From the NCBI GenBank assembly GCA_000092065.1, contig CP000581.1: a DNA stretch of 64,000 nucleotides. One strand, written 5' to 3'. The first letter of the stretch is position 1; every line of letters begins with the position of its first letter. Both the position numbers and the translations under genes were made by a program. Positions 26,479 through 64,000 of this stretch are shown here, one piece after another. The notes below the pieces were generated by a model that saw only the letters and a program-made list of their open reading frames with translations, was not told the origin of the DNA and ran no database searches. The DNA is from Ostreococcus lucimarinus. Its lineage: Eukaryota.

Positions 26479-28188
26479 TTGACGAGCGCGCGAGTCGTGC
26501 GAACGCTTTCGACGACGAGCGAAAGCGACGCGATGGCGACTTCATCGCCTCGTACGCGGGTGATTGTTTGGTTTCGGAACGACTTGAGGTTGTTGGACAA
26601 CGCCGTCGTCGCTCGAGCGGCGGCTCTGCGCGGACAATCGGACGCCGCTGAGGTCGTCCCGGTGTACGTGTTCGATGAGACGTTTTTTAAGACATCCAAG
26701 CGCGGTCTCGCGCGCTTCGGTGCAGGGCGTGGGAAGTTTACGATTGAGTGCGTGGACGACTTGAAGCGCGCGCTTCGCGGCGTCGGCAGCGACTTGTTGG
26801 TGCGTTGCGGCAAGACGGAGGATGTCATCACCGAGCTCACGCTCACGGGTGCGAACGACAAAACGATCGTGCTCACGCAAACAGAGGTGACGAGCGAGGA
26901 GACTGATATGGATAGGGCGGTAGAGAGGGCGTCGAAGGAGCGAGCTCGAAGCGGCGGCGCGTCGGCGTCGATGGAGCGTCTGTGGGGGTCGACACTTTAC
27001 CACGCCGACGACCTCCCGTACGACTTCGCCGGAGGTCTACACGATTTACCAGATGTGTTCACGCCATTTCGGAACAAGGTAGAGTCAAAGTGCTCAGTGC
27101 GAGCGGTAGTGCCCGCGCCGACGGCGAACGCTCTGGGAAGCGTACCGGCGTCCGTGGCGGGGTTGGATTGGATGCCTGAACCGAAGGATTTGCCTTTCGC
27201 GTCGGCCGAAATCGCCCCGGCGTGCGAAAAATGGCTCAAAGATGGCGCAGACGAGCGCTCTGTGCTCGAATTCAAGGGTGGCGAATCCCAAGCCTTGGCT
27301 CGCGTCAAGTATTATTTGTGGGATAGCGATTTGCTCGCGACGTACTTTGAAACTCGCAACGGGATGCTGGGCGGCGACTACAGCACCAAGCTCGCACCGT
27401 GGCTCGCCTTAGGATGTGTGTCGCCGCGCTACGTCGTGAGCGAGATTCGACGCTACGAGAGCGCGCGCGTTGAGAACAAGAGCACGTATTGGGTAATATT
27501 TGAGTTGATATGGAGAGACTTCTTCAAGTTCTTCGCGCTGAAACACGGGAACAAAATCTTCCATCTCGACGGTACGGCTAACAGGACGGCATCTTGGAAG
27601 AGTGATGAGAAGATCTTGAAGGCATGGAAGACAGGCACGACCGGATACCCACTCATCGACGCCAACATGCGCGAACTCGCGGCGACTGGTTTCATGTCGA
27701 ATCGAGGGCGACAAAACGTCGCCTCGTGGCTCGCCCTCGACGCCGGCGTCGACTGGAGACACGGTGCCGATTGGTTCGAGCACCACTTATTGGATTACGA
27801 CACCGCTTCTAACTGGGGGAACTGGTGCGCCGCCGCCGGTATGACGGGCGGTCGCATCAACCGCTTCAACATCGCCAAGCAAACCAAGGACTACGATCCC
27901 TCTGGCGACTACGTCAAGCGTTGGATCCCGGAACTCCGCGAGATCCCCGCGGCGTACATCACCGAGCCCAACCAAGCCCCTCGCGAGCTTCGCGATCGAA
28001 TCAGTCTCGATTACCCGAACAAGCTCAATCTCCCGAGGCGTGACTTCACGGAAATGGGGTCTCCGCCCGGGCCGAAGCGCGGCGGCGGTCGCGCCGCCGG
28101 CGGCGGTCGAGGCGGTCGAGGCGGGCGTTCGAAATCTCGCGGCCCCAAGGCCCACGCCGTGAGCGTGTACGACCACGTGTACGGTTAA
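26479..28188 (+). CDS. CRY-DASH: Cryptochrome DASH (photolyase/cryptochrome family). The ATG is near 26533 (MATSSPRTRVIVWFRNDLRLLDN...). C-terminal Gly/Arg-rich tail.
   Basis: N-terminal photolyase alpha/beta 'VIVWFRNDLRLLDN'. FAD-binding 'WREFF', 'FMSNRGRQNVASWL', 'DWRHGADWFEHHLLDYDTASNWGNWCAAAG'. The sequence, ending '...RINRFNIAKQTKDYDPSGDYVKRWIPEL', is typical of CRY-DASH. Confidence 0.9.
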   Translation: MTSARVVRTLSTTSESDAMATSSPRTRVIVWFRNDLRLLDNAVVARAAALRGQSDAAEVVPVYVFDETFFKTSKRGLARFGAGRGKFTIECVDDLKRALRGVGSDLLVRCGKTEDVITELTLTGANDKTIVLTQTEVTSEETDMDRAVERASKERARSGGASASMERLWGSTLYHADDLPYDFAGGLHDLPDVFTPFRNKVESKCSVRAVVPAPTANALGSVPASVAGLDWMPEPKDLPFASAEIAPACEKWLKDGADERSVLEFKGGESQALARVKYYLWDSDLLATYFETRNGMLGGDYSTKLAPWLALGCVSPRYVVSEIRRYESARVENKSTYWVIFELIWRDFFKFFALKHGNKIFHLDGTANRTASWKSDEKILKAWKTGTTGYPLIDANMRELAATGFMSNRGRQNVASWLALDAGVDWRHGADWFEHHLLDYDTASNWGNWCAAAGMTGGRINRFNIAKQTKDYDPSGDYVKRWIPELREIPAAYITEPNQAPRELRDRISLDYPNKLNLPRRDFTEMGSPPGPKRGGGRAAGGGRGGRGGRSKSRGPKAHAVSVYDHVYG

Positions 28189-36855: not shown

Positions 36856-38223
36856 ATGGGTGCGTGTGCGTCGATGCTGAGCGGTGCACCGGCGGAGGGA
36901 GGAGAAGTGTCGCGATTGGCGGATACACTCGTGCGTCTGGGGGCGGAGCGGAGGACGGTGAACGATGCGCTGCGGTTATTCTGGCGCGCTGATAAAGACG
37001 GGAGCGGGACGCTCGGGTTGAAGGAATTCGCGGAGACGTTTGCGTTGCGCACGCGGAACGCGTTTTTACCGCGTATGATGTCGCTTTTCGACGTCGGAGG
37101 CGACGGGGACATCGGGGCGTTGGAGTTTGTCATGTGCATGGCGCAGTTTCACGAAAGAAGCGCGTCGGCGCACATATATTTCGCTTGGCGACTGTTCGAC
37201 CAAGACGACTCGGGTTCGATGACGATGGAGGAGTTTGAAACCATCATAAACAACTCGATGAGCTACACGGGATCGAATAAAGGTTTCAGCGGTGGATCAC
37301 ATGATCAAATGGGGGACCGCGTCGTTAGAGCTGGCCGCAACGGGGCACGAGTGCGGGTGAAAGGCATGAGACAAATCATCAAACAAGCCGACTTGGACGA
37401 CAACGGCGTGATCACAATCGACGAGTTTAAGGTTCTTTGCGCGAATAGCTCGCATATCGCCGCGCCGGCTTTCGAGCTGTGGAGTGCAGTCGGGGCACAA
37501 TCGAAACCTTGTTGGAAACTGAAGGAAGAGCTCAAGGCGAAAGGCAAGCTTGAAGCAGTACTAGAGATGCTCAGCCCAGCGGCGAGAAAAGCGTTGGGAG
37601 TGAAACGCAAAACGGACGTGGATCGCAAAGATAGGCGTCACGGTGCAGCACGCCGGACGATGGGGAACAACAGAAGAAAGCCAGAACGAAAGATACCCGG
37701 TGACCTCGCGTTCATGGACTCCGTGAAAATAAAAAATGAAGACGACGCTGCGCGCGGTGAGCGGCAGTCGGGCGAGCGGCGCGCGGGCGCGCGAGAACAT
37801 CGAGATCACCGCGAACGCAGTCATCGACATCACCATAGGCATAGAGACGATCGCGAGCACCGTGGGCCTCGCGATGATCGCGCTCGCGATAATCCTCGTG
37901 GTCACCGCGATCATCACTCGGAGCGTCGCAAACATCGACCGGATGATGGATATTACGGACAACCGCCGCCGAACGCGTTCGCGCCGAACCAAGGTCTCGG
38001 CGGTGGTTACGGCGGTAACGACGTGCGGTACGGGGGAAACCAAATGTCACCGTCGCATCAATACGAACAGCAGCGACCACCGATGAGTAATGGTGGTGGC
38101 GGCGGTTACGGCCAACCGCGCGGCGGTCAGCCTCCTCGCCCGGGCGCTCGCGCCCCGTTCGCGGGCGACGGCGACCAAGACGAGCTATTGGCTCAGCTCG
38201 AGCGCGATTTGTACGGCAGGTGA
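36856..38223 (+). CDS. N-myristoylated EF-hand Ca2+-sensor (calcineurin-B/NCS-like) with a long RD/H-rich and G/Q/Y-rich low-complexity tail
   Basis: 'MGACAS' myristoylation consensus. EF loops 'DKDGSGTLGLKEF', 'DVGGDGDIGALEF', 'DQDDSGSMTMEEF', 'DLDDNGVITIDEF'. Tail 'RDHRERSHRHHHRHRDDREHRG...GGGYGGNDVRYGGNQ'. Confidence 0.75.
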   Translation: MGACASMLSGAPAEGGEVSRLADTLVRLGAERRTVNDALRLFWRADKDGSGTLGLKEFAETFALRTRNAFLPRMMSLFDVGGDGDIGALEFVMCMAQFHERSASAHIYFAWRLFDQDDSGSMTMEEFETIINNSMSYTGSNKGFSGGSHDQMGDRVVRAGRNGARVRVKGMRQIIKQADLDDNGVITIDEFKVLCANSSHIAAPAFELWSAVGAQSKPCWKLKEELKAKGKLEAVLEMLSPAARKALGVKRKTDVDRKDRRHGAARRTMGNNRRKPERKIPGDLAFMDSVKIKNEDDAARGERQSGERRAGAREHRDHRERSHRHHHRHRDDREHRGPRDDRARDNPRGHRDHHSERRKHRPDDGYYGQPPPNAFAPNQGLGGGYGGNDVRYGGNQMSPSHQYEQQRPPMSNGGGGGYGQPRGGQPPRPGARAPFAGDGDQDELLAQLERDLYGR

Positions 38224-47708: not shown

Positions 47709-50030
47709 CTACTTTTTATACTCGTATTCGATGCGCAAACGCCGCTCCGTTCCCTCACCGACGGCGCTATGACTTAGCATGTACGTGTCCACCAACGCCT
47801 GTTGCATTTCGATGATGCGTCCCGATCGAGGCAATAGCTCGACAGGCTCGCGATGGGGAATGACGAGCTGCTCGACGGCCATGCGCACCTCTTCCAGGGC
47901 ATCCGTTTCATCCGCGCTCGACGTAGTCGCTCGCTGTCTATTTTCTTGAGCACCACTTCCTCCGTTAAATCCATCACTTGCACCCGTTATGCCTAACATG
48001 GCTTGCAAAGCGCGAACGAGCTGCGCCGAGTTATCTGCCCGCACGGCGTAAATCGGCATACCTCGCGCTCTAGCCGCGTGTCGTAGCCACGTGGACGTCT
48101 TCACTTGCGATTTTGGCGCAATGACCACGCTCGCGTCTTCAAGAAGGTCAACCAAGCACACTCGATCACCCAAGTCCATGCTCTCCATGACGCGCTCCAG
48201 AGCGTCGCGACTAACTTTGAACGGAAACACTCGAAGAGCGTGCGGAGGGCACGTGTTGTCGTCTTCGTCGTCTTCGACGTCGTTCACGATGACGTCTTCG
48301 CCGCCGAGTTCGAAACGCGTGTTATCCACAAACTGTTGCGTCGTCGACGATGATCGACGTCGCGATGCGCTTGCGATTTCTAAAGCCGCGAGCTCAGAGC
48401 TCGATCGAGGCTGGACTTTTTGCGCCGTCGGTCGAGGCGCCGTCGCGTCGTACGCTAGGATTTCTCCAAGAACGCTCGCCTTTCGGCGACTTGTGTACTC
48501 TGCCTCCGTCGTCACCGTTCCATCTTCGTTCAGAACGCGTAGTTCGGTCATCGGCGACTGCCCCGCGAGTAAAGCGTCGACAGAAGCCGCGACGTCGGTG
48601 TGAACTCTCCAAGTGCCGATGTCGAGCATTTCCACGGCGATGGTAAACGTTGGTGGACCCGCCCTTTCGAGCACACTCTTCTGGACCCCTCGTCTACGTG
48701 CTTCGTCGTCGCCAAGAGTGACGCTCACAACACCACCTATCAAATCACATAACGCCGGGTTCTTCAAAACGTTCTCCAGCGTGTGTCCGTGCGCCGTACC
48801 AATCATCTGCACGCCTCGCTCGCTGATGGTTTGCGCTGCGTCCGCCTCTTGCTGCGTGCCGATTTCATCAACCACCACCGTCTGGGGCGTGTGATTTTCC
48901 ACGGCTTCGATGAGCACGAGATGCTGTTCGCTCGCGTTCGGGACTTGCATTCGACGGGCACCACCTATACCGCGATGGGGAACGTCGCCGTCGCCCCCGA
49001 TTTCATTTGACGTATCAACGATGACGACACGGCGAGAATGCTCATCCGACAGAATGCGAGAAATCTCTCGAATAGCCGTCGTTTTTCCTACACCAGGCCG
49101 TCCGAGAAGTAGTATCGAATTATTAAACGTCGTCACCGACGTTTCGGCGTCCAAAACGTCCCTGATAAGTTCGGCAGAACCCGAGATCGCGCGTCCGACT
49201 CGACACGTCGCGCCGATGACTTTGCCGTAACGATTCTTAATCGCGCTTATTCTGTGCAAAGTCCCGTTGATACCCGCGCGATTATCTCGTCCGACGTCTC
49301 CAACCTTTGTCATCATTCTATTCAAATCTTCGTACGTCACGAGCTCGTCCCCGATTGTGGCATCGCCGTCCGGAAACCGCGCCTTTGGTAGTCTTCCCAA
49401 GTCGAGCACGACTTCGGTGAGCTCGAGCCTTCGCGCGTCTTCCGCCAACGCCCGTCGCACGCGCTCGGGCGCCGCGTCGAGCAATAGCGCAATTTCTTTT
49501 TCGCTCGTCACCGCCGCCAGCGTCGCTCGCTTTCGAGCGGCGAGCACGTCCTCCTTCGTCAACGCCAACGCGCCCGCGCTCGAGGACGTCGACGTCGCGT
49601 CGTCGGCGTCGTCGACGGCGTCGCGCCGCGTCGCGCGCCGAGGGCTGGCGCGGCGCCATCGCGCGCTTCGTCGTCCCTTAGTCCACCCGTCGCACCGCGC
49701 GGACGCGGACGCGGACGTCGACGTCGTCGTCGGCGCCCCCCGCATCGCGCGTCGCCGTGTGTCGCGGCGTCCCGCGCGCGCTCGGACCGCCGGACCGCGG
49801 GCACGAGGCACGACTGACTCGCGCGCGTCACAACGCGCGCGCGCGACGAAGGCGACGCACCGACGCCTCGATCGCGTCGTCGGCGTCGTCGTCGAAGTCG
49901 CCGTCGCCATGGGCTCGCCCGGCGGACGCAGCGCCGTCGTCATCGCGTGCTGGTACACCGCCAACGTCGGCGTGCTGCTGCTGAACAAGTACATCTTATC
50001 CGTGTATGGGTTCCGATTCCCGGTGTTCAT
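47709..50030 (-). CDS. Ycf45-like / SpoIIIAA-family R3H-domain P-loop (AAA) ATPase with an S/T-rich plastid-type presequence. The start is probably the internal Met near 49910 or further downstream.
   Basis: 'LLLGRPGVGKTTAIREISRIL' Walker A, 'VVVDEIGT' Walker B, 'QMIGTAHGHTLENVLKNPAL', and R3H-like 'VTYEDLNRMMTKVGD'. Confidence 0.75.
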   Translation of the reverse strand: MNTGNRNPYTDKMYLFSSSTPTLAVYQHAMTTALRPPGEPMATATSTTTPTTRSRRRCVAFVARARCDARESVVPRARGPAVRARAGRRDTRRRAMRGAPTTTSTSASASARCDGWTKGRRSARWRRASPRRATRRDAVDDADDATSTSSSAGALALTKEDVLAARKRATLAAVTSEKEIALLLDAAPERVRRALAEDARRLELTEVVLDLGRLPKARFPDGDATIGDELVTYEDLNRMMTKVGDVGRDNRAGINGTLHRISAIKNRYGKVIGATCRVGRAISGSAELIRDVLDAETSVTTFNNSILLLGRPGVGKTTAIREISRILSDEHSRRVVIVDTSNEIGGDGDVPHRGIGGARRMQVPNASEQHLVLIEAVENHTPQTVVVDEIGTQQEADAAQTISERGVQMIGTAHGHTLENVLKNPALCDLIGGVVSVTLGDDEARRRGVQKSVLERAGPPTFTIAVEMLDIGTWRVHTDVAASVDALLAGQSPMTELRVLNEDGTVTTEAEYTSRRKASVLGEILAYDATAPRPTAQKVQPRSSSELAALEIASASRRRSSSTTQQFVDNTRFELGGEDVIVNDVEDDEDDNTCPPHALRVFPFKVSRDALERVMESMDLGDRVCLVDLLEDASVVIAPKSQVKTSTWLRHAARARGMPIYAVRADNSAQLVRALQAMLGITGASDGFNGGSGAQENRQRATTSSADETDALEEVRMAVEQLVIPHREPVELLPRSGRIIEMQQALVDTYMLSHSAVGEGTERRLRIEYEYKK

Positions 50031-51281: not shown

Positions 51282-53426
51282 TTACACGCTTCTACCTTCT
51301 AGACGTTCTAGACGTGCGAGAACGCGCGCGGTGGACGAACGATTGAATGAGCTGTGTCGAAACTCGACTTCGTGTACGGCATGGTCGGTGAGCTCGCCTT
51401 CGTCGCCTGAGAAATCGAAATGCCCAATGACGAGCGATTCGTCGACACCGTCGTGTTTCGAAAAGCGTCCCAACACGATGGGATACCATATCGCGTCGTC
51501 CTCAGGCATATCTGCATACGGTATTTCTTGTTGTTGAAACCACGTCGGAATGATGTCAGCTGACGCGCGCGCGTGAGTTGGAAACAACTTCGCGACGCTC
51601 GTGCCGTCGCGAAACGCGCACACAAATTCGTGCTCGACGGCGAGACCACCATCTGGCATCCAACCGCGAAATACGAAGCGCGCGGCTTCAAAAAGATCTT
51701 TCGGATCGTTCAAAGCATCGCACGCCAAGGGGTTGAGACCTGCTTCCTCTAGTGCGACGGACCGAGCGACGTCCAGTGGGACTAAATCCTTCTCGCTGTC
51801 GACTTCGGCGATGAAGCCGGTGTAGCGGCCGGCGAATTCGCCGCGCGTGTGCTTCCCCAGCAGGATGCGACCGTTGGCGACGTCCAAAACGAGAAGCTGA
51901 GCAAAACGCTTTGGCGGTCTCGTAAGCTCTGATTTCGGGTACACCTGCTTGTCGATCATATCGGCGAGGTTGTCGCTGGCGCGAGTGACGTTTTGTCCGA
52001 CGTGATCGCCTTGTGTCCGCGGTTCGTACGCTGCATTCAACGGACGATGCGGAGTGACAAACTGTGGAAGTGGCGCAATGACGGCGTCGTCGTTGAGACC
52101 GTTGAATCTCACGAGCGATAATCGATCTCGTCCATCGCGAGATGGTCGAACGCGATGCGGCGTCGCGCGTACGACTCCGTTTGTAAAAATCTCGAAAGCG
52201 TCCGACAGAATGCACGTAAAAATGGCCTCATTCTCGTACGCCGGCGCCGAGCGCCACGCACCATCTCGCCCTTGGAGCTCTAATCCTTCGCACGTCTGAT
52301 GAAGAAGTGTGAAGAATTCAAAGTCTGTGTGCTCCGAGATACCAACTATTTCCACTTTCGACGCGGCGATTCGTTCGCTGCGTCGCGTAGTCGAGTCCTC
52401 CTCGTTCGCTTCGTCATCCACTTTCATCGATGGATATCGCATTGCGCGCATGCTGCAGTGTGACGTATTGCCAAATTTCTTTACCCAGACGTCTTCGTCG
52501 TCGACGTGAAGCGCCTTCGCAAAGCATCGATACAGCGTCCTCGCCGCGCCATCGCACGCGCTGTAAAAACTGCAAAACGCACTTTGCATCGCGGGCACCT
52601 CCACCGGCCAATCCATAGGTCCAAGTCCTCGTGCCGCGTCGTCACCTCGTTCGTCTCGCACTTGCTCAATCTCACATGAGCTCAACTCTCGAACGACATC
52701 AAACGACTCGACGAGCGCGGCTGTTTTCTTTTGGTAAGAGTACTCTTCCAGCAGGGGCACGAAACCACCGCTCTCGTTCGCGTATTGCGAGTGTACGTAC
52801 AGCGCCTTCACGTCTTCTGGCAGCGAGAAGAACGTTCGGGCGATGTCGTACGTGCGCGCGACGTCGAACGGCGCGACGCGCGACGTTGACGCCTCGCCGA
52901 CGTCTCGAGCGTCGAGCTCGAAGTAACCGACACGCTCGCTCGACGTCAGCGCTTCACCCAGACGCGCGATTTCGACGTCGTCGCCGTCCGCGAGCTTGAT
53001 GAGAGATACTCGCGGCACGCTGTCGCTCGCGTGCATGACGCGACGAGCGATCGAACGAGGAGAGTCGTCGCTCACGTCGTCGTGTGACGCGCCGATGCAC
53101 GAAAAACTCCTCACACGACGACGTGGGCGACGACGAATCGAACGACGACGAATCGCGAGCAAGATGACGAACGCGACGAGCGAGCGAGTTATTGGCGTCG
53201 CCCACGACGTGCTGCCACAACGAGCGAAGAAGAAACCGCGACGAGACACAGCGATGACGGAGAGGACGGCTTCGACTTCTTCGGCGGCTGAGGCCGACCC
53301 GACGCCGCTGACGACGGACGATGAGGACGTTCGACGGGGATTCGAAAGCACGGACGCGCGCGTCGTGCGATACGCGCCAGAACACGATGACTTTCGAGCG
53401 CGCGAGGACGAAGACGAAGACGACAT
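51282..53426 (-). CDS. Fusion protein: N-terminal 2-oxoglutarate/Fe(II)-dependent oxygenase (DIOX_N plus 2OG-FeII_Oxy) and C-terminal NUDIX hydrolase domain. The likely true start is near 53066 (MHASDSVPRVSLIKL...).
   Basis: 'HTDFEFFTLLHQ...RATPHRV' (HxD...H facial triad, RxS). Nudix box 'GKHTRGEFAGRYTGFIAEVDSEKDLVPLDVARSVALEEAGL' (Gx5Ex7REVxEExG). Confidence 0.7.
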   Translation of the reverse strand: MSSSSSSSRARKSSCSGAYRTTRASVLSNPRRTSSSSVVSGVGSASAAEEVEAVLSVIAVSRRGFFFARCGSTSWATPITRSLVAFVILLAIRRRSIRRRPRRRVRSFSCIGASHDDVSDDSPRSIARRVMHASDSVPRVSLIKLADGDDVEIARLGEALTSSERVGYFELDARDVGEASTSRVAPFDVARTYDIARTFFSLPEDVKALYVHSQYANESGGFVPLLEEYSYQKKTAALVESFDVVRELSSCEIEQVRDERGDDAARGLGPMDWPVEVPAMQSAFCSFYSACDGAARTLYRCFAKALHVDDEDVWVKKFGNTSHCSMRAMRYPSMKVDDEANEEDSTTRRSERIAASKVEIVGISEHTDFEFFTLLHQTCEGLELQGRDGAWRSAPAYENEAIFTCILSDAFEIFTNGVVRATPHRVRPSRDGRDRLSLVRFNGLNDDAVIAPLPQFVTPHRPLNAAYEPRTQGDHVGQNVTRASDNLADMIDKQVYPKSELTRPPKRFAQLLVLDVANGRILLGKHTRGEFAGRYTGFIAEVDSEKDLVPLDVARSVALEEAGLNPLACDALNDPKDLFEAARFVFRGWMPDGGLAVEHEFVCAFRDGTSVAKLFPTHARASADIIPTWFQQQEIPYADMPEDDAIWYPIVLGRFSKHDGVDESLVIGHFDFSGDEGELTDHAVHEVEFRHSSFNRSSTARVLARLERLEGRSV

Positions 53427-56310: not shown

Positions 56311-58518
56311 CTATGGCGCCGCGTCTCGTTTCGTCGCTCTCGCCTGTATGTTTTTCGTCAACTCGGCTTGAATCTCGATCAATTCGGCGTTCATGCGCGC
56401 AATGTGCTGTCTTCGCAGTTCTTCCGTTTCAAACGACCCCTTCATAGCCTTGCGGACGCTTTCAGGAGTGTTGTCTCGCACCAAAGGTACGATTGAATCT
56501 CCAATGGCGTCCTCTAAAGCTTCGTACGTCGGCTTCCAAGGCGCCGGCACGGCGTCGTCGAGGCGACTCTTGAACCGTCGGAGCTTGGGCATGAGCGGCG
56601 GCGCCGCCTCCTCGATATTCATCTTGATGGTCTCGAGTCGCTTTTTGAGTTGTTTCATTCGCTCCACTTCGTCAAGCGTCGCTTCAACGCGCATAATTTC
56701 CTGCTGAATCTTAGAGAGTCGGCTCGCTTTGTCCTCCTCGGTAGTCAAGAGCGCGACGTCGTCGGGCTTGCGTCGCACGAGAAGGCGCACGATGCGCTCT
56801 CGAACGCTCTTTCTCCCAGACTTGAGGTCGTTCTGCCTCGCCACATACCTGCGAACCGCACGTCGACGTTTCTGAGTACCTCCGCGCGCGCTCTGTAGCG
56901 CTCTCGTCAGTTCTTCCTCCTCCTGGCGCTTCTTCGCTAACGTTTGGATGTCCATCGGTCCGTCTGTGAGAATGGTGAATCGCCCCTTTGGAATCTCCTT
57001 GAAGTTCTTGTTTACCACGCGCTTTTCACGGTCCAACGCAGCGTACGCAGCGGCATCCAAAGTGCCTGAGTTGGAGATGGACGCACTCGCTCGCGCTGAC
57101 GCCCATTTCCGCTTCTCGTACGATACAACTCGCGTCGTCGGACCGGGCAAGCCGCTCTGTCGGCGGAGCGTGTTGCGCACTTGGCGACTCAGATTCCCCA
57201 CGGCCGGTCCGCCGCAAAAGTAAACCCATGGAATCCACGTGGGGATTCCAAGGATATCTGGATGAGAGTACGAATACAGATGACCGTAGTTGATCAACAC
57301 GATTTCCGCCACGGGCCCGCACACCGCGGTTAAACTAGCCATGAACAGTCCCTGCGCGCTGTTGTCGAAGAAATACCACGTCGTCACCGCCCATACGCAC
57401 AAAAATATATCAATCAAATGGTACGGCAGGAAACCATCCACGAAGGGCGATTGCGGCGACGCCAAAATTCCAGAGACGAGGTATTGAAACGCAAAGACGC
57501 TGATGCACAGATTGACGCTCACCCAGCTCGGCTGCCAACCCAAAGCGGGCTTGCCTTTTGCATTTTCAATCAACTCTGACGTCCTACTCACGATTTGTTC
57601 GGTGCCTTGGAGACCTTTTCGTATCTCAATCTCTCTCGCGCGCTTCACCGACGAGCGAATGCGAAATTCATCGAGACTTGTGTGCCCGAGACCGATGACG
57701 ATTGCCGCGGCGCCAAACAGCGGTGGCACCCACCACCCAGTCTCTAAAACACCATTTTCGTTCACAAACATGATTCGAAACAGGTCCTTCACCGGTTCGG
57801 GGGCTATGAAATTCATGATTGGACCGAACGGCGAGTTCCACAACGGTGCGAATAGGGCATCAAAATGAATTTGCAACGGCGTCGCGTAGTGCAACACGTC
57901 GAATCGCGAGTGTTGGTGGTCGAGTAAAGGCCCCAATATTGCCCCCGCCACGAACATCAACGCCACTTCGTTCGCGAACGCGACGCGCTCGCGCTCGACT
58001 TCTTCTTCCACGATCTCTGGCGTCATCGCCGGAGCGCGTCCCGTGACACCGGCCAACGCATTTCTCTTTCCGTCGTCGCCGTCGCCGCCGTTCGTCGACG
58101 TCGCCGTCCCGCTCGCCGGAGCACCTCCCGTCTTCACGACGCGCGACACCACGCGCGCGGCGTCTTGTCGACGCGATAACGCTTCCATCTCTTCCTCTCG
58201 CTTCGCGCGTTCTCTCGCGCGTCGCTCGCTCTTCGCATTCGTCGTCGACGACGCCGGCGTCGGCTCGGATGTCGCGCGCGCGACGACGCGCGCGCGGGCG
58301 TCGTCGCGCGCGCGACGTCGCGCGCGCGCGTCGGCCGGCGCCGAGACCGCGCGCGCGACGACGCCCGCGCGCATATTCGCTCGAACCCTCGCTCGCGGCG
58401 CGTCGCGTCGCGCACTCGCGTCGCGCGGCGCGCGCGCACCGACCAACGGCTGCGGACGCCCGCTCGGGGCGCGGAACGTTCGTCTCCGAAAGGGCGCATT
58501 GACGATGGCGAACGCCAC
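56311..58518 (-). CDS. INSIG-domain membrane protein with a plastid-type transit peptide and a long C-terminal coiled-coil / basic extension
   Basis: Transit-like 'MAFAIVNAPFRRRTFRAPSGRPQPLVGARAPRD'. INSIG-like 'TGWWVPPLFGAAAIVIGL' and 'YSYSHPDILGIPTWIPWVYFCGGPAVGNLSRQV' (compare human INSIG1 'SAWWVPPCCG', 'YQYTSPDF...IFFAGGITMGNIGRQL'). C-terminal 250 aa are helical and K/R/E-rich. Confidence 0.7.
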   Translation of the reverse strand: MAFAIVNAPFRRRTFRAPSGRPQPLVGARAPRDASARRDAPRARVRANMRAGVVARAVSAPADARARRRARDDARARVVARATSEPTPASSTTNAKSERRARERAKREEEMEALSRRQDAARVVSRVVKTGGAPASGTATSTNGGDGDDGKRNALAGVTGRAPAMTPEIVEEEVERERVAFANEVALMFVAGAILGPLLDHQHSRFDVLHYATPLQIHFDALFAPLWNSPFGPIMNFIAPEPVKDLFRIMFVNENGVLETGWWVPPLFGAAAIVIGLGHTSLDEFRIRSSVKRAREIEIRKGLQGTEQIVSRTSELIENAKGKPALGWQPSWVSVNLCISVFAFQYLVSGILASPQSPFVDGFLPYHLIDIFLCVWAVTTWYFFDNSAQGLFMASLTAVCGPVAEIVLINYGHLYSYSHPDILGIPTWIPWVYFCGGPAVGNLSRQVRNTLRRQSGLPGPTTRVVSYEKRKWASARASASISNSGTLDAAAYAALDREKRVVNKNFKEIPKGRFTILTDGPMDIQTLAKKRQEEEELTRALQSARGGTQKRRRAVRRYVARQNDLKSGRKSVRERIVRLLVRRKPDDVALLTTEEDKASRLSKIQQEIMRVEATLDEVERMKQLKKRLETIKMNIEEAAPPLMPKLRRFKSRLDDAVPAPWKPTYEALEDAIGDSIVPLVRDNTPESVRKAMKGSFETEELRRQHIARMNAELIEIQAELTKNIQARATKRDAAP

Positions 58519-58590: not shown

Positions 58591-58594
58591 ATGG

Positions 58595-58632
<38 letters not shown>

Positions 58633-61600
58633 TCGCCGCACGCGTTCTCCCCGCACGCCGCGGGCGGGGGGCTTTCGGAGGGCGATGGCGACGGCGCGAG
58701 GAAAAGTGGCGCGGCGTCGCGCGGGACCGCGCGAAAAGCGTACGAAGGCGCGAAACAGAGCGTGAAGAAGGCGTACGCGCGCGTGTACGACGACGAGCGG
58801 AGCTTGTTGTGCTTTAGCGACGCGTCCAGGGTGCGACAAATGTGCGCGAAAATCGCGCGAGCCACGAGCTTTCAGGTGTTCGTTTTCGCCGTAGTGGCGC
58901 TTAACGCCGCTGTGTTGGCGATGGAACTTCCCGAGCGCGCCTACGTCGCTCGAGGAGGCTCCGTACCGCTGACCGCGGACGGGTCGTGGGCGTTGCAAGT
59001 GGTTTTTGTCGTCGTCTTCGCGTTCGAAGCACTGGTGAAAGTTATAGCGAGTGGCTTCGCCATCGGATCGAAGGCGTACTTGACGGAGCGAAGCAATATT
59101 TTCGATTTCGTCGTGGTTGTGGTTGGGATCGTAGACTTGAGTAGCTCAGGCTCGAGCGGAGTCGGGACGCTGCGACTGTTGCGCACGATTCAGCCCCTTC
59201 GAGCGCTGAACAAATTCAAATCTGGAAGAATGGTTCTAGAGACGATTCGGAAATCGATTCCGCTCTTGCTCGACGTCGTGGTATTCATGTCGTGGTTCGT
59301 GATCGTTTGCACCGTAGTCGGTATGATGTCGTTCGGTGGTCGCTTGAACTCGCGAGAGTATTCGGGCGCCGGGTCGTCAAACGTCGCGGCGACGGCGATT
59401 TGTAGCACCCTCGTCGCCGACTACCCGACGTCGGCCGCGGCGAGCGCGGAAAGCCCAAATTATCCTTCAGATGAGCTGCTATGCCTGAATCGTAGAAAGA
59501 ATACGCTCGTCTCGAACGATACGTATTGCTGCGATTCCGGCGTGTCACCCGTCGACGGCTTCGTCAACTTTGACGATTTTGCCAAGGGTGCGTTTGTCGT
59601 TTTACAAATTATGACGGTCGATGGATGGAATGAGATCGCATGGCCTACCGCGCGGGCCGCTGGGACGGCGCCTGCGTTGATATTTTACTTCGTTGTCGTT
59701 CTCATCGGAGGTTTCTTTGTGCTTCAACTGTTCACGTCGGTCATTTGCGCGACGTTGAGTGACATCGAAGATGAAAGCGCCTCGATGGATTGCGAGACGC
59801 TCGGTGATGGCGCGACGGGCCTTTCACAAATGTTCGAATCAACGCGACCCTCGGTTTACTCGAAGTCATTCTTGAGCGGCGTTGGATCAACACTCTCGTC
59901 GTTCAGGTTGCCAGGTCAGGATGAAATTGATGGTTCCGAGGGCATGCAGAAGTGGCGACTCAAGGCACTCGCTCTCGTCGCTGACGTTCGATTCGAGTCT
60001 TTCGTGAACATCACCATTATACTGAACACATTTACGATGATGTCAGTGACTGCAGAACCGAATCCGTCGCTGGAGCTATTTAGAGAAAACGCCGAGTACT
60101 TCTTTTTCGCGGTGTTTTGCTCCGAGTTTGCGCTGAAACATTTTGCTGTCGGACCCGTAGCGTACTGGAAGACGACGTGGAATCGACTGGATGGCTTGGT
60201 CGTTCTCTCCGGTATAATTGATATGACACTATCAGCTATAAGCTCTGGATCTGGCGTGAACCTGTCCTTCCTTCGCATACTGCGCGTGTTGAGAGTTTTG
60301 CGCATTGCGCGCGTCTTTCGTAGGAGTACGAGCTTTCAGAAAATATTGCGTGCGGTCGTACTAGGAGCGCAGCGTATTTGGGTGTTTTTATTGGTATGGG
60401 CAATCTTCATGATTATGTTTGCGATCCTCGGTACGCAGCTCTTTTCTGCGAAAGGTGATTTGGACGATGAGAGATTGAATTTCAGAGACTTTTTTTCGTC
60501 CATCGTGACGCTCTTTGTGGTGAGCACGGGCGAGAACACGTTTGAAGTCGCTTGGGGCACTATGAAAGCTGACGGTGACGCGGCGGGACTTTACATGGTC
60601 GTTTGGTGCTTGATCACGACATCGATTTTGGCGCTCGTACTTGGAATTCTTATCGATTGTGTCACCGAAGAAGGTAAAGTTGCATCGATTATCACCATGA
60701 AAGTTCCGCGACGAGAGCGCTTTGCGCGGGAAATGGCTAAATCCATGGGGTTTGACGAAGACGACTTCCCTGAATGGGTTCATCTCAAAGCAAACGAGGC
60801 GTGGACAAAGCGCAATCAAGAGCGCTCGAGGGCGAAGAGCGCAACGGAAGCAGGTTTAGGTCTCGATGAAGACGAAGAGAAGACAGACAGCGACAGCGAC
60901 AGCGACGACGACGAAGTCGAAGGTGATGAAGTAGCGCTACATGTGTTTGGCGATCCGTTCGAGGCGAGGCGCTTGCGCAAAGAACGAATCGCTCAAATGC
61001 GACGCGTCCACGAAGTTGCGGTCGTGCGACATTGGCTCGTGACGCTAGGTTATGAGCATCACTCTGCGAAATCGCTCGAAGTCGCGAAGACGATGCGGCG
61101 GCGATCCGTGATAAAGGCTCGCGAGCGACTGGCCAAGTCGCACAAGGCGAACGAGTTGAAGCGTCGAGCAATTGTTGACAGCATCAGCGCCAAACTTTTG
61201 GATCGTGATGACGTCGATGCGAGTCGCTTAGTTCCACTCAGCGTCCGCTGCATCATGAAAAAGGACGAGGACTTACACGCAGACCTCAACTTGATCGACA
61301 TCAACGGCGACTTTATTCCGCATCATGCCCTCTTTCCCGACAACGACCCCGTAGCTGAGGCGGAATCGTTGGTGCATTACGTGCGAAATGATAACTTTCG
61401 TATAGCGATGTCATTTTACGGCATTGATGAATCCGACGAAAGAGACCAACTAAGACTCAAGGCGCTTCGCTTCGTGAAGCATCCTTGGTTTGACGTTGTC
61501 GTATTGCTCTTGATTGGTGCGAGTTCAGTATTGCTCGCCACGGAAACGAACTCGTTTCCAGCGGCTGACTCGAATATGGAACGGGTATACTTGATTCTCG

Positions 61601-64000
61601 ATATTTGTTTCAACACATGCTTCACCATCGAAATGTGTTTGAAACTGTTTGGGCTTGGGGCGTGGAGGTTTCACGGGTCGTACTTCAAGTCGAAGTTCAA
61701 CATCATGGATGCCGTTGTGGTCGTCACTTCGTGGTTGATTGTCTTGCTTGGCGACGCTCTGCCAATACGATCGTTACGCGTTGTGAGGGTTCTACGTCCT
61801 TTACGATCGGTTAAACGAATTAAGGGGTTGCGAGTCGTAGTCGAAGCCATCATGTCTTCACTGCCGGCGATTTCATCCGTGTGCGTGGTCGGCCTCGCGA
61901 TGCTCACGATGTTGTCAGTGCTGGGTATGGAGTTGTTTCTGGGCAAGATGCATCGTTGCACGAACACCGCGGTGACTGTTGCGAATAAAACGCAGTGCTT
62001 AGCGGCGGGGGGAGTTTGGCGAAAGGCAAAGTTTAACTTTGATTCCTTTCCGGAGGCTTTCCTCAGCGTGTTCATCATCGCTACCGGCGACAATTGGCAA
62101 GACCTCATGTACGAAGCGATGGATGTCGTCGGCGTAGATCAAGAACCTATCCGAGATAACGCCAAGTGGGCGTGCGTTTACTTTTTCGTATCGATTCTCT
62201 TTGGCTTCTTGCTCTGGGCAAATCTCTTTGTGTCGGCGCTCATCGACAATTTCAATCGTATCGCACACGACGAGAACGACGGCAAGCTGCTTGTCACCGA
62301 TGAGCAACGCGTGTGGCAGCAAGCAATGTTACTCGCCACGGTGCACGCTGACAACTCTTGGCGTAGATCATCACCGGAAACGCCCTGGAAAGCCGTCGTG
62401 CATGGCGTAGTGTCTAAGTATACCTTTGACGCGTTTTCCGTCTTTATGATCGTACTCAACATGGTCACGATGATGGCAATACGCGCGAACCCGTCGAAAT
62501 CTGAGGACGACTATCAAGTTTGGATGGGAAACACGTTAGCGATCTGGTACATGCTTGAGGCTTATCTTTTGATCGTCGCCATGAAGTGGAAAAATTACTG
62601 GCAGAGCGGTTGGAATAAGATCGATTTCATCGTGGCAGTTAGCGGTGTCGTCGGTCTACTCATCCCGGATGTTTACGAGAGTGGCGTTGGTGGAGCTTTC
62701 CGTATGCTGAGATTTTTGCGATTGTTTAAAATTGTTCAGGTGAGCAAAGGTCTGCGAACACTTTTCGCGACATTCTTGTCGGCGATTCCTGGAGTCGTCA
62801 ATGTCGCGCTTTTATCTCTGCTGTTCATGTACATCTATGCTTGCCTCGGTGTCGCACTCTTTGGCGACATGTCTTCAGATTACCTCGGCGCTGCACTTTC
62901 GGAGTACTCAAACTTTGTGACGTTCCCAAAAGCGATGGTGAGTCTTTTTGTGAGTTACACTGGAAATTGGCAAGGATACTTCACCGACATTTACGTCGAC
63001 GATCGCTGTTACGAAAACACATCGCTACCGGCTAATGTGACGTGCTCTCCCCGCTACGTGAGCATATTTTATTTCGTCACGTACGTCATCACGAGCGTCT
63101 TTTTCCTTGGGAACTTGTTCATCGCCATTATCCTTGAGCGATTTAGCTTTTGTGCCTCAGAAGAAGAAGGTGTGGGTGGCAGTGGCGAGAGCAACTTTCT
63201 TTACGCCACGATGACGTTGAAGCGTGTGGCGCGTCAAATTTCTCGTAGCGTACGCGAGGCGACCAAGCTCGCGCCGAGCGAACGGCAAGATGCATATGTT
63301 GAGAAGCGTCGGGCGCGTTCGAAGGCAGGCAGCGGCACTGCGACGCCGAGCACGCCGCATTTGAGCAAGAACAATAGCATTCAGCGCGCGAGCACGGCGA
63401 GCACTACGCCGGCGTCTGCATCGCCGCATGGCGATTTCGATCCGTTCGATGATCCAACCGATGAAGTCATCGATACTGTGCGATCCAACCTTGAAGAAAT
63501 TCGCGCTAAAACGCAGTCTCCGATCGCAGTCGAAGACGATCTCGACTTTGAAGACGTCAAGTCTGCGCTGAGAGACGCGTTGCCAACCCAAGACGCGGCG
63601 TCTCTTTTGGCGGCGGCGAACGCCGTTGATCGACTCGTGCGTTCGCGCAGTCGCTCTCGAAGCGTTAGTCGGGGACGCACAAGGGTATCATCTGCAGGTG
63701 ATATGGCTTTTGAAGATGTGAACCGAAGCGACGACGATGATGGCACCCTCGAGATGATTCGCGCGACGAGCTCGACGCCGACGCCGACGCGAGGTCGTAG
63801 TGTTGCGCGAGTGCATAGTCAGCGGTCGCGAGTGGAAAGCGCTACAGCGCGTATGAAGATGGCGACATCGGCTGGATCGTCGCGGCATGGCTCGAGCGAT
63901 GAGGAGTCCGACGAAGCGCCGCGCGCTTACGGAAACGGCTCACGCGCGTACGAACGCGAGTTCGAAGCGTCTTCAGACGACGAAAGCTTAGATTACTCGC
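58591..64000 (+). CDS. Four-domain voltage-gated cation channel (Cav/Nav superfamily). It is 3'-partial: a single uninterrupted reading frame runs from the ATG near 58591 to the window edge. It is not listed in the ORF track because it has no stop in the window.
   Basis: Four 6-TM repeats with Arg-periodic S4s ('LRLLRTIQPLRAL', 'FLRILRVLRVLRIARVFRR', 'LRVVRVLRPLRSVKRIKGLR', 'FRMLRFLRLFKIVQVSKGLR'). Pore loops 'TVDGW', 'TGENT', 'TGDNW', 'YTGNW'. N-terminal (PS)n. Long II-III linker and C-terminal tail. Confidence 0.9.

Follow-up and report, generated by a model that had tools for sequence, protein, structure and literature searches.

A four-domain voltage-gated-type channel of Ostreococcus lucimarinus with a predicted three-carboxylate selectivity filter

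Ostreococcus is the smallest free-living eukaryote. The genus has been named explicitly as an exception to the association of Cav and Nav channels with flagella (PMC4685582). Among the closest described systems is a protein from O. tauri, XP_003074718.1 (“Ostret4”), which is listed with the S4 segments GTLRILRALQPFRALS / SFLRIMRILRLFRVARVFR / RSLRTVRILRPLRSVNR / MFRMLRFLRLFKVVQV in Table S2 of the survey of Pozdnyakov et al. 2018 (PMC5824947). An asymmetric 4-0-2-2 pattern of turret cysteines and a III-IV linker of 53-57 amino acids are considered hallmarks of eukaryotic channels with four domains of six transmembrane segments each (4x6TM) (PMC6259924). The stretch of O. lucimarinus DNA analyzed here (the window; 64,000 nucleotides of contig CP000581.1) ends in a gene at 58591..64000 on the plus (+) strand, to which all channel coordinates below refer. 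Its predicted product is a four-domain (4x6TM) voltage-gated-type channel, and, as read from alignments, its filter ring consists of three carboxylates (D344, E648, and D1167), the acid of domain IV having been deleted.

The gene is a single open reading frame (ORF) of 1,803 codons without a stop (58591-64000), beginning at ATG 58591, and there is an in-frame stop 12 codons 5' of that ATG. The product contains four stretches matching Pfam PF00520 (Ion_trans; E=1.6e-177) and otherwise only weak PKD_channel overlap, and all four domains are colinear with Cav3.2 and Nav1.7 in phmmer alignments. A first-pass annotation of this DNA had described an intron-less 4x6TM ORF of more than 1,790 codons, with D, E, and D as the filter residues of domains I to III, a domain II loop without the usual Trp, a domain IV loop one residue shorter than the consensus, and a ring that was neither EEEE nor DEKA. 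These points are upheld by the results reported here, and the profile alignment gave neither E/E/E/E nor D/E/K/A. Its assignment of “probably N” as the domain IV filter residue is not.

The P-loop of domain I reads TVDGW (residues 342-346; 59614..59628), with D344 (59620-59622) as the filter residue; that of domain II reads TGENTF (residues 646-651; 60526..60543), with E648 (60532-60534); and that of domain III reads TGDNW (residues 1165-1169; 62083..62097), with D1167 (62089-62091). When solved structures are aligned pairwise by phmmer, the Cav3.2 Glu and the Nav1.7 Asp line up with D344, the domain II Glu with E648, and the Nav1.7 Lys with D1167. MAFFT alignments of 20 family members with 13 reference channels, and separately of 150 representatives, give the same three filter residues. 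So do per-domain profile hidden Markov models (HMMs), which were built from 140-143 canonical non-family pore regions and to which the family was aligned: the Asp of domain I, the Glu of domain II, and the Asp of domain III are all placed on a profile E. Both MAFFT and the profile HMM put T650 (60538-60540) at the usual Trp column of domain II. The canonical T-x-[filter]-x-W loop is present in domains I and III and absent in domains II (Thr650 for Trp) and IV (one residue short). These departures of the domain II and IV P-loops are a deviation inside the superfamily and not a ground for exclusion from it.

The P-loop of domain IV reads YTGNW (residues 1456-1460; 62956..62970), and the three alignment methods agree that it is one residue short. 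Pairwise phmmer opens a gap of one residue further upstream, within the P1 helix, and sets G1458 on the Nav Ala column. MAFFT opens it at the filter column, giving YTG-NW against STGDNW / ATGEAW / TTSAGW. In the domain IV profile, which reads “sTgesW,” the delete state coincides exactly with the filter “e”; the residues aligned to T, g, s, and W are T1457, G1458, N1459, and W1460, respectively. The deleted column thus lies between G1458 (62962-62964) and N1459 (62965-62967), the ring reads D/E/D/deletion, and N1459 is the filter+1 residue. The channel's own repeats read TGEN in domain II and TGDN in domain III, and the TG-N of domain IV is most simply explained as such a loop that has lost its acid. 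Whichever gap placement is taken, the residue available in domain IV is Gly or Asn and never an acid, Lys, or Ala.

The short loop is a property of the family. It is found in all 93 of the family sequences that cover domain IV, none of which has a loop of canonical length; the counts are 72 for YTGNW, 17 for YTGGW, 3 for LSGNW, and 1 for MSGNW, and the loop of P0006 reads FTGNW. The motifs T[VI]DGWN in domain I and GD[ND]WQ in domain III are invariant across the family, and the pore residues D344/E648/D1167 are invariant in a clade that diverges to ~33% identity. The sequences were assembled independently and are drawn from ENA, JGI, Logan, Tara, and MMETSP. Since these filter features are kept in every available family member, they represent neither an error nor a chance event.

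Such a pore is uncommon among the best database matches. A phmmer search with domains III and IV against 1.84 billion 50%-identity representatives yielded 13,997 matches at E<=0.001. Among the best 150 of the 13,997, the combination of D/E/D, no domain II Trp, and the domain IV deletion occurs in 10 (P0012, P0017, P0308-P0312, P0322, P0331, which ends before domain IV, and P0342), and nearly all other loops among the best 150 are canonical E/E/E/E-like, EEDD, or DEKA. In a neighbor-joining (NJ) tree of 919 well-aligned columns, the family forms a clade in 200/200 bootstraps, and each of three subgroups within it is likewise recovered in 200/200. Subgroup A, which contains the query, has STGENTF / TGDNW / YTG-NW; subgroup B has ATGEDSF / AGDDW / YTG-GW; and subgroup C has CTGENTF / [LM]SG-NW. 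The nearest outgroup, which is weakly attached, consists of P0313, P0317, P0319, P0351, P0382, and P0433 and has Q/R/E-type domain I filters. We also found that the domain IV loop of P0313, a member of this neighbor clade with filters Q/N/D and the domain II Trp kept, seems to be one residue short (AFT-LTW), reflecting either a shortening that arose independently or an artifact of the alignment.

By the Nei-Gojobori method, the ratio of nonsynonymous to synonymous substitution rates (dN/dS) against the ortholog in locus L001 is 0.23 for the whole channel and 0.12 for domains III and IV. It reaches ~0.5 only in the II-III linker (0.50) and the short N-terminus (0.51). By this measure, the channel gene is under purifying selection. 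Two metagenomic orthologs, P0001 (87% identical) and P0002 (99% identical), have the same start, MAPSP..., and end in ...DESLDYSRL*, from which it follows that the ORF in the window is short of only ~2 codons (R-L) and the stop, which lie past the window end. The MMETSP transcript P0136 matches the genomic ORF P0132 at 99.5% identity and is colinear with it, without internal gaps; this supports expression and the absence of introns for an ortholog, and the gene in the window is apparently intron-less as well. The first-pass annotation had named introns or a pseudogene as grounds for abandoning its reading; given a dN/dS of 0.23 and the colinearity of the ortholog's transcript and genomic ORF, neither is indicated here.

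A structure model of the half comprising domains III and IV (residues 950-1540) was obtained with AlphaFold2 (AF2) from a 27-sequence alignment; domains I and II lie outside the model. It has a pLDDT (predicted local distance difference test) of 78 and a pTM (predicted template modeling score) of 0.73, and Foldseek ranks Nav1.7 first among its matches (TMq 0.83), with Cav3.2 at TMq 0.76. The modeled domain III is canonical: the P1 helix extends to T1165, followed by the GDN turn and by a P2 helix from W1169.

The III-IV linker consists of 57 residues (1222-1278; 62254..62424), which is within the range of 53-57 given in PMC6259924. The first-pass annotation saw no IFM-like inactivation motif in this linker, a statement that does not survive alignment with Nav1.7. 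Residues 1233-1236 (62287..62298) form an IFM-like hydrophobic triplet plus Thr, LLVT, which aligns with the Nav1.7 IFMT, and LLVT-DEQRVWQQAM matches IFMT-EEQKKYYNAM position by position. The site is conserved in the family as three hydrophobic residues plus T or S, with the variants LFIT, SLVT, ALMT, MLVT, ALIT, TLVS, and TFVT, and Table S3 of PMC5824947 gives “PLMT” at the same site in O. tauri XP_003074718.1. On alignment, no motif of the LLVT-DEQ type is present in Cav3 or Cav1.

Taken together, the evidence leads us to favor, by a modest measure, a voltage-gated, inactivating, Ca2+-permeable, and weakly selective cation channel with a three-carboxylate ring as the product of this gene. 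The gene would be orthologous to that for O. tauri XP_003074718.1, within a prasinophyte/marine-metagenome clade with a remodeled pore. Domains I and III keep the canonical T-x-D-x-W, and domain II keeps its Glu and has lost its P2 Trp. A 3-nucleotide deletion, TG[D/E]NW to TG-NW, would have removed the domain IV filter acid, leaving a high-field-strength ring made up of D344/E648/D1167 only, with no charge from domain IV. The S4 helices of all four domains carry 4-6 Arg or Lys residues, which points to voltage gating, and LLVT-DEQ in the 57-residue, Nav-like III-IV linker may act as a fast-inactivation particle. With a net charge of -3, the ring is comparable to that of the DEEA/DEEG Nav2 channels or to a Cav ring minus one Glu, and it would be expected to pass Ca2+ and to discriminate weakly between Ca2+ and Na+. 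The expectation of weak selectivity is drawn from analogy with the DEEA/DEEG/DEES pores of PMC6259924, in which DEEA/DEES/DEEG/DEET are listed among the calcium- or non-selective pores. In seawater, such a channel would carry a depolarizing, Ca2+-admitting, transient current, which in a nonflagellate cell could serve environmental or stress Ca2+ signaling and not flagellar control. In classic Glu-substitution work on Cav1.2, removal of the domain IV carboxylate reportedly weakened Ca2+ binding without abolishing it. An unusual ion selectivity is plausible from the filter residues, as the first-pass annotation had predicted; since three carboxylates plus a small neutral residue amount to a Nav2-type charge pattern, the prediction is less exotic than that annotation implied.

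Several points weigh against this interpretation. In the AF2 model, the P-loop of domain IV forms a single unbroken DSSP helix (1445-1468) with no resolved turn; as a modeled feature, this would fit an overly short turn and does not decide between Gly and Asn. The shortened domain IV loop and the lost domain II Trp may change the pore geometry in ways that fall outside the DEEA analogy. According to PMC5824947, selectivity is not reliably readable from filter letters, and NALCN has an IFM-like motif yet no fast inactivation; an IFM-like motif is no guarantee of fast inactivation. The NJ tree is crude and does not settle deep relationships. A literature search found no functional study or electrophysiology for any clade member.

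A channel that prefers Na+ without using a Lys is the strongest competitor, although we consider it unlikely. With fewer carboxylates, and shorter ones (two Asp and one Glu), in an asymmetric and possibly wider pore, the affinity for Ca2+ would be lower, and the channel would carry a Nav-like current with fast inactivation in seawater of 470 mM Na+. The Nav-like III-IV linker, with its LLVT-DEQRVWQQAM absent from Cav3 and Cav1, fits this proposal, as do the domain I Asp, which is as in Nav, and the rank of Nav1.7 in the Foldseek search. Furthermore, the “calcium beacon” Asp, a concept from PMC6259924, is missing at the domain II filter+1 position, where Asn649 is found. However, a Lys in either domain II or domain III, the hallmark of sodium-selective four-domain channels according to PMC6259924, is missing from the channel, and the same source places DEEA-type pores of the same charge with the calcium- or non-selective ones.

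It is far less probable that the protein is a nonconducting voltage sensor or scaffold, in which the filter has collapsed or become occluded through the residue deleted from domain IV and the Trp lost from domain II. Both changes affect structurally important P-loop positions, and no canonical domain IV turn appears in the AF2 model. However, D344, E648, D1167, and the remaining P-loops are invariant in the clade down to ~33% identity, and a dead pore is not expected to keep its carboxylates; the dN/dS is also lowest, at 0.12, in domains III and IV. That the odd filter is an artifact of sequencing, assembly, or alignment error, a pseudogene, or a true EEEE or DEKA ring in disguise has next to no probability: the domain IV gap is indeed placed differently by the three alignment methods, but every placement leaves only G or N, and 93 sequences assembled independently of one another agree in loop length, with a dN/dS of 0.23 and 1,803 codons without a stop. 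Readings as a pseudogene or a sequencing error were accordingly rejected on the dN/dS and the 93-sequence loop census, and an undetected intron was rejected as well.

A bolder proposal concerns the geometry of the ring. The two changes that define the clade, the Trp lost from domain II and the residue deleted from domain IV, are coupled and affect diagonally opposed domains, and domains I and III are canonical. We raise, with low confidence, the idea that the filter is two-fold pseudo-symmetric, with a geometry unlike that of any solved Cav, Nav, or NALCN channel. If true, this would imply a selectivity or permeation (e.g., Lys-independent Na+ selectivity or another cation) beyond the EEEE/DEKA framework, serving an undescribed excitability in nonflagellate picoalgae.

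The turrets of domains I to IV hold 4, 0, 2, and 2 cysteines, respectively, in agreement with the asymmetric pattern noted above. Near the N-terminus, a perfect tandem repeat, (CGCCGT)x6.3 (58595..58632), encodes an SPSPSP... tract, SPSPSPSPSPSP, that is 7 residues shorter in the 87%-identical ortholog; this indel indicates that the tract is length-polymorphic. Domain I spans S1-S6 at residues 94-393 (58870..59769), with turret cysteines C271, C298, C313, and C314. In its S4, GTLRLLRTIQPLRALNKFK (59164..59220), the third gating-charge position is occupied by Gln (LRLLRTIQPLR), which is kept throughout subgroup A and gives way to H or Y in subgroup B. Domain II spans S1-S6 at residues 468-694 (59992..60672); the turret between its S5 and P-loop is without cysteine, there being no Cys in residues 600-672, and C673 follows the P-loop. 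Its S4, SFLRILRVLRVLRIARVFRR (60265..60324), has six Arg. The II-III cytoplasmic linker (residues 695-966; 60673..61488), for which the dN/dS of 0.50 was given above, is long, acidic, and of low complexity. Domain III spans S1-S6 at residues 967-1225 (61489..62265), with turret cysteines C1123 and C1136 and the S4 RSLRVVRVLRPLRSVKRIK (61768..61824), and domain IV spans S1-S6 at residues 1279-1522 (62425..63156), with turret cysteines C1473 and C1485 and the S4 AFRMLRFLRLFKIVQVSK (62695..62748).

The cytoplasmic C-terminal tail, from residue 1523 to the window end (63157..64000), is rich in Ser, Arg, and Asp. Nearly all of the sequences P0001-P0020 end in x-[R/Q/x]-L, in the forms SRL, SQL, GQL, AQL, EQL, DVL, DRL, and FRL. 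The conserved C-terminal Leu resembles the PDZ-binding tails of 4x6TM channels (PMC6259924), and SRL is also similar to the peroxisomal targeting signal PTS1. At E<=0.01, Pfam searches found neither GPHH (PF16905) nor Ca_chan_IQ (PF08763) in the channel, whereas the Cav1 matches have both; Na_trans_assoc (PF06512) and Na_trans_cytopl (PF11933), which the vertebrate Nav matches have, were not found in it either.

Neighboring ORFs are eukaryotic in character and include INSIG, F-box/RCC1, EF-hand, lipase, and 2OG-oxygenase proteins. Within ~9 kb of the channel is a Spore_III_AA/PTPase (ycf45-like AAA+) gene at 47709-50030 (-), the best named relative of which is from Ostreococcus tauri (70% identity), followed by one from Micromonas commoda (53%); these values point to an Ostreococcus-like alga distinct from O. 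tauri. The same gene (L003 1-294) adjoins P0014, an ortholog of the channel, on a lagoon-metagenome contig of 1.9 Mb with a G+C content of 0.65, a Micromonas-like composition. This shared neighbor indicates that the linkage to the channel is conserved across Mamiellales-like genomes, over ~47% divergence of the channel protein. An INSIG-like gene (PF07281, E=1e-12) at 56311-58518 (-) is divergent to the channel, an annotation that is unusual for a green alga; only ~72 bp separate it from the channel ATG, suggesting a divergent promoter region of very small size. An imperfect tandem array rich in CG dinucleotides, with periods of 2/14/18/32 (58271-58372), lies upstream of the channel start and overlaps the upstream end of the same ORF. 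Some 20 kb from the channel, a 455-amino-acid protein with several EF-hand Pfam matches is encoded at 36856-38223 (+); it is a candidate Ca2+ sensor by its domains, without evidence of a functional link to the channel. ARAGORN also called a 94-nucleotide tRNA-Ala(CGC) at 28055-28148 (+), inside the region of ORF 26479-28188, and an 88-nucleotide tRNA-Ser(CGA) at 52852-52939 (-), overlapping ORF 51282-53426. Since these tRNA calls overlap long ORFs, one annotation of each pair is probably spurious.

The S4 segments of the channel are identical to those of “Ostret4” at 53/68 positions, in a comparison by eye restricted to the S4 strings and the IG motif. In P0020, a member of subgroup B, S4-II and S4-III are letter for letter those listed for O. 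lucimarinus XP_001422214.1 (“Ostrel3”). These matches, made to the strings given in PMC5824947, indicate that the clade is already represented in RefSeq and in a published survey. A database search with the domain III-IV fragment for named Ostreococcus, Micromonas, and Bathycoccus homologs returned only two weak matches. Judged from these comparisons, the channel is probably a new ortholog inside a catalogued, functionally uncharacterized prasinophyte clade. In practice its novelty is small, since the O. tauri counterpart was publicly available and included in a survey by 2018 at the latest. The strong constraint on the channel suggests that it is kept in Ostreococcus for something besides motility control. 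The clade as a whole may be regarded as a natural experiment on the number of filter carboxylates and the loop length that a four-domain pore needs.

Among solved structures, the channel is matched best by Cav3.2 (7e-122) and Nav1.7 (2e-112), with NALCN far weaker (5e-31). The likeness to Cav3 (EEDD) extends to the domain III filter Asp and to domain IV, where YTG-NWQG corresponds to the Cav3 STGDNWNG minus its Asp. However, the channel has Asp and not Glu in domain I, no acid in domain IV, and no Trp in domain II; its III-IV linker has a Nav-like motif that Cav3 is without; and the family lies outside the Cav3 clade. The four acidic filter residues of the Cav channels (EEEE in Cav1/2 and EEDD in Cav3) are not present. 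With Nav1 (DEKA), the channel shares the D of domain I, the E of domain II, a region that aligns well with IFMT-EEQ, and the best fold match (TMq 0.83), but it has D1167 where Nav1.7 has the domain III Lys, and it has no domain IV Ala. An affiliation with NALCN/Cch1 was rejected on the scores given above (5e-31 versus 7e-122) and on S4 charge; those channels combine an EEKE/EKEE (or NEEE) ring with charge-poor S4s, whereas this one has no filter Lys and charge-rich S4s.

In the charge of its ring, the channel resembles Nav2/DSC1-BSC1 (DEEA, DEEG, DEES, and DEET), with which it shares D, E, an acid, and a small neutral residue (D/E/D/G in the phmmer reading), along with an IFM-like motif in a short III-IV linker. 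It differs in having Asp and not Glu in domain III, in a domain IV loop that is shortened and not substituted, in the absence of the domain II Trp, and in the lack of detected Na_trans_assoc/Na_trans_cytopl domains. In the crude NJ tree, furthermore, the family groups with protist sequences and not with the P0080/P0085-like Nav2 representatives. The nearest NJ outgroup, presumably from the same algal lineage, is made up of sequences that look like the prasinophyte channels with RSDD/RADD-type filters, which are known from Verret 2010, as cited in PMC6259924, and from the entry for WSC XXIX in PMC5824947. These outgroup sequences differ in having Q/R/E in domain I, a nonacidic domain II, and D in domain IV, and they keep the domain II Trp. 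The O. tauri channel has near-identical S4 strings and PLMT in place of LLVT at the IFM position, in so far as the survey tables give its sequence. In these alignments and trees, the filter is not one by which Cav, Nav1, or NALCN is defined, and the channel lies outside their clades. It is like a mosaic, with P-loops nearest to those of T-type channels, a Nav-like III-IV linker, and a Nav2-like ring charge.

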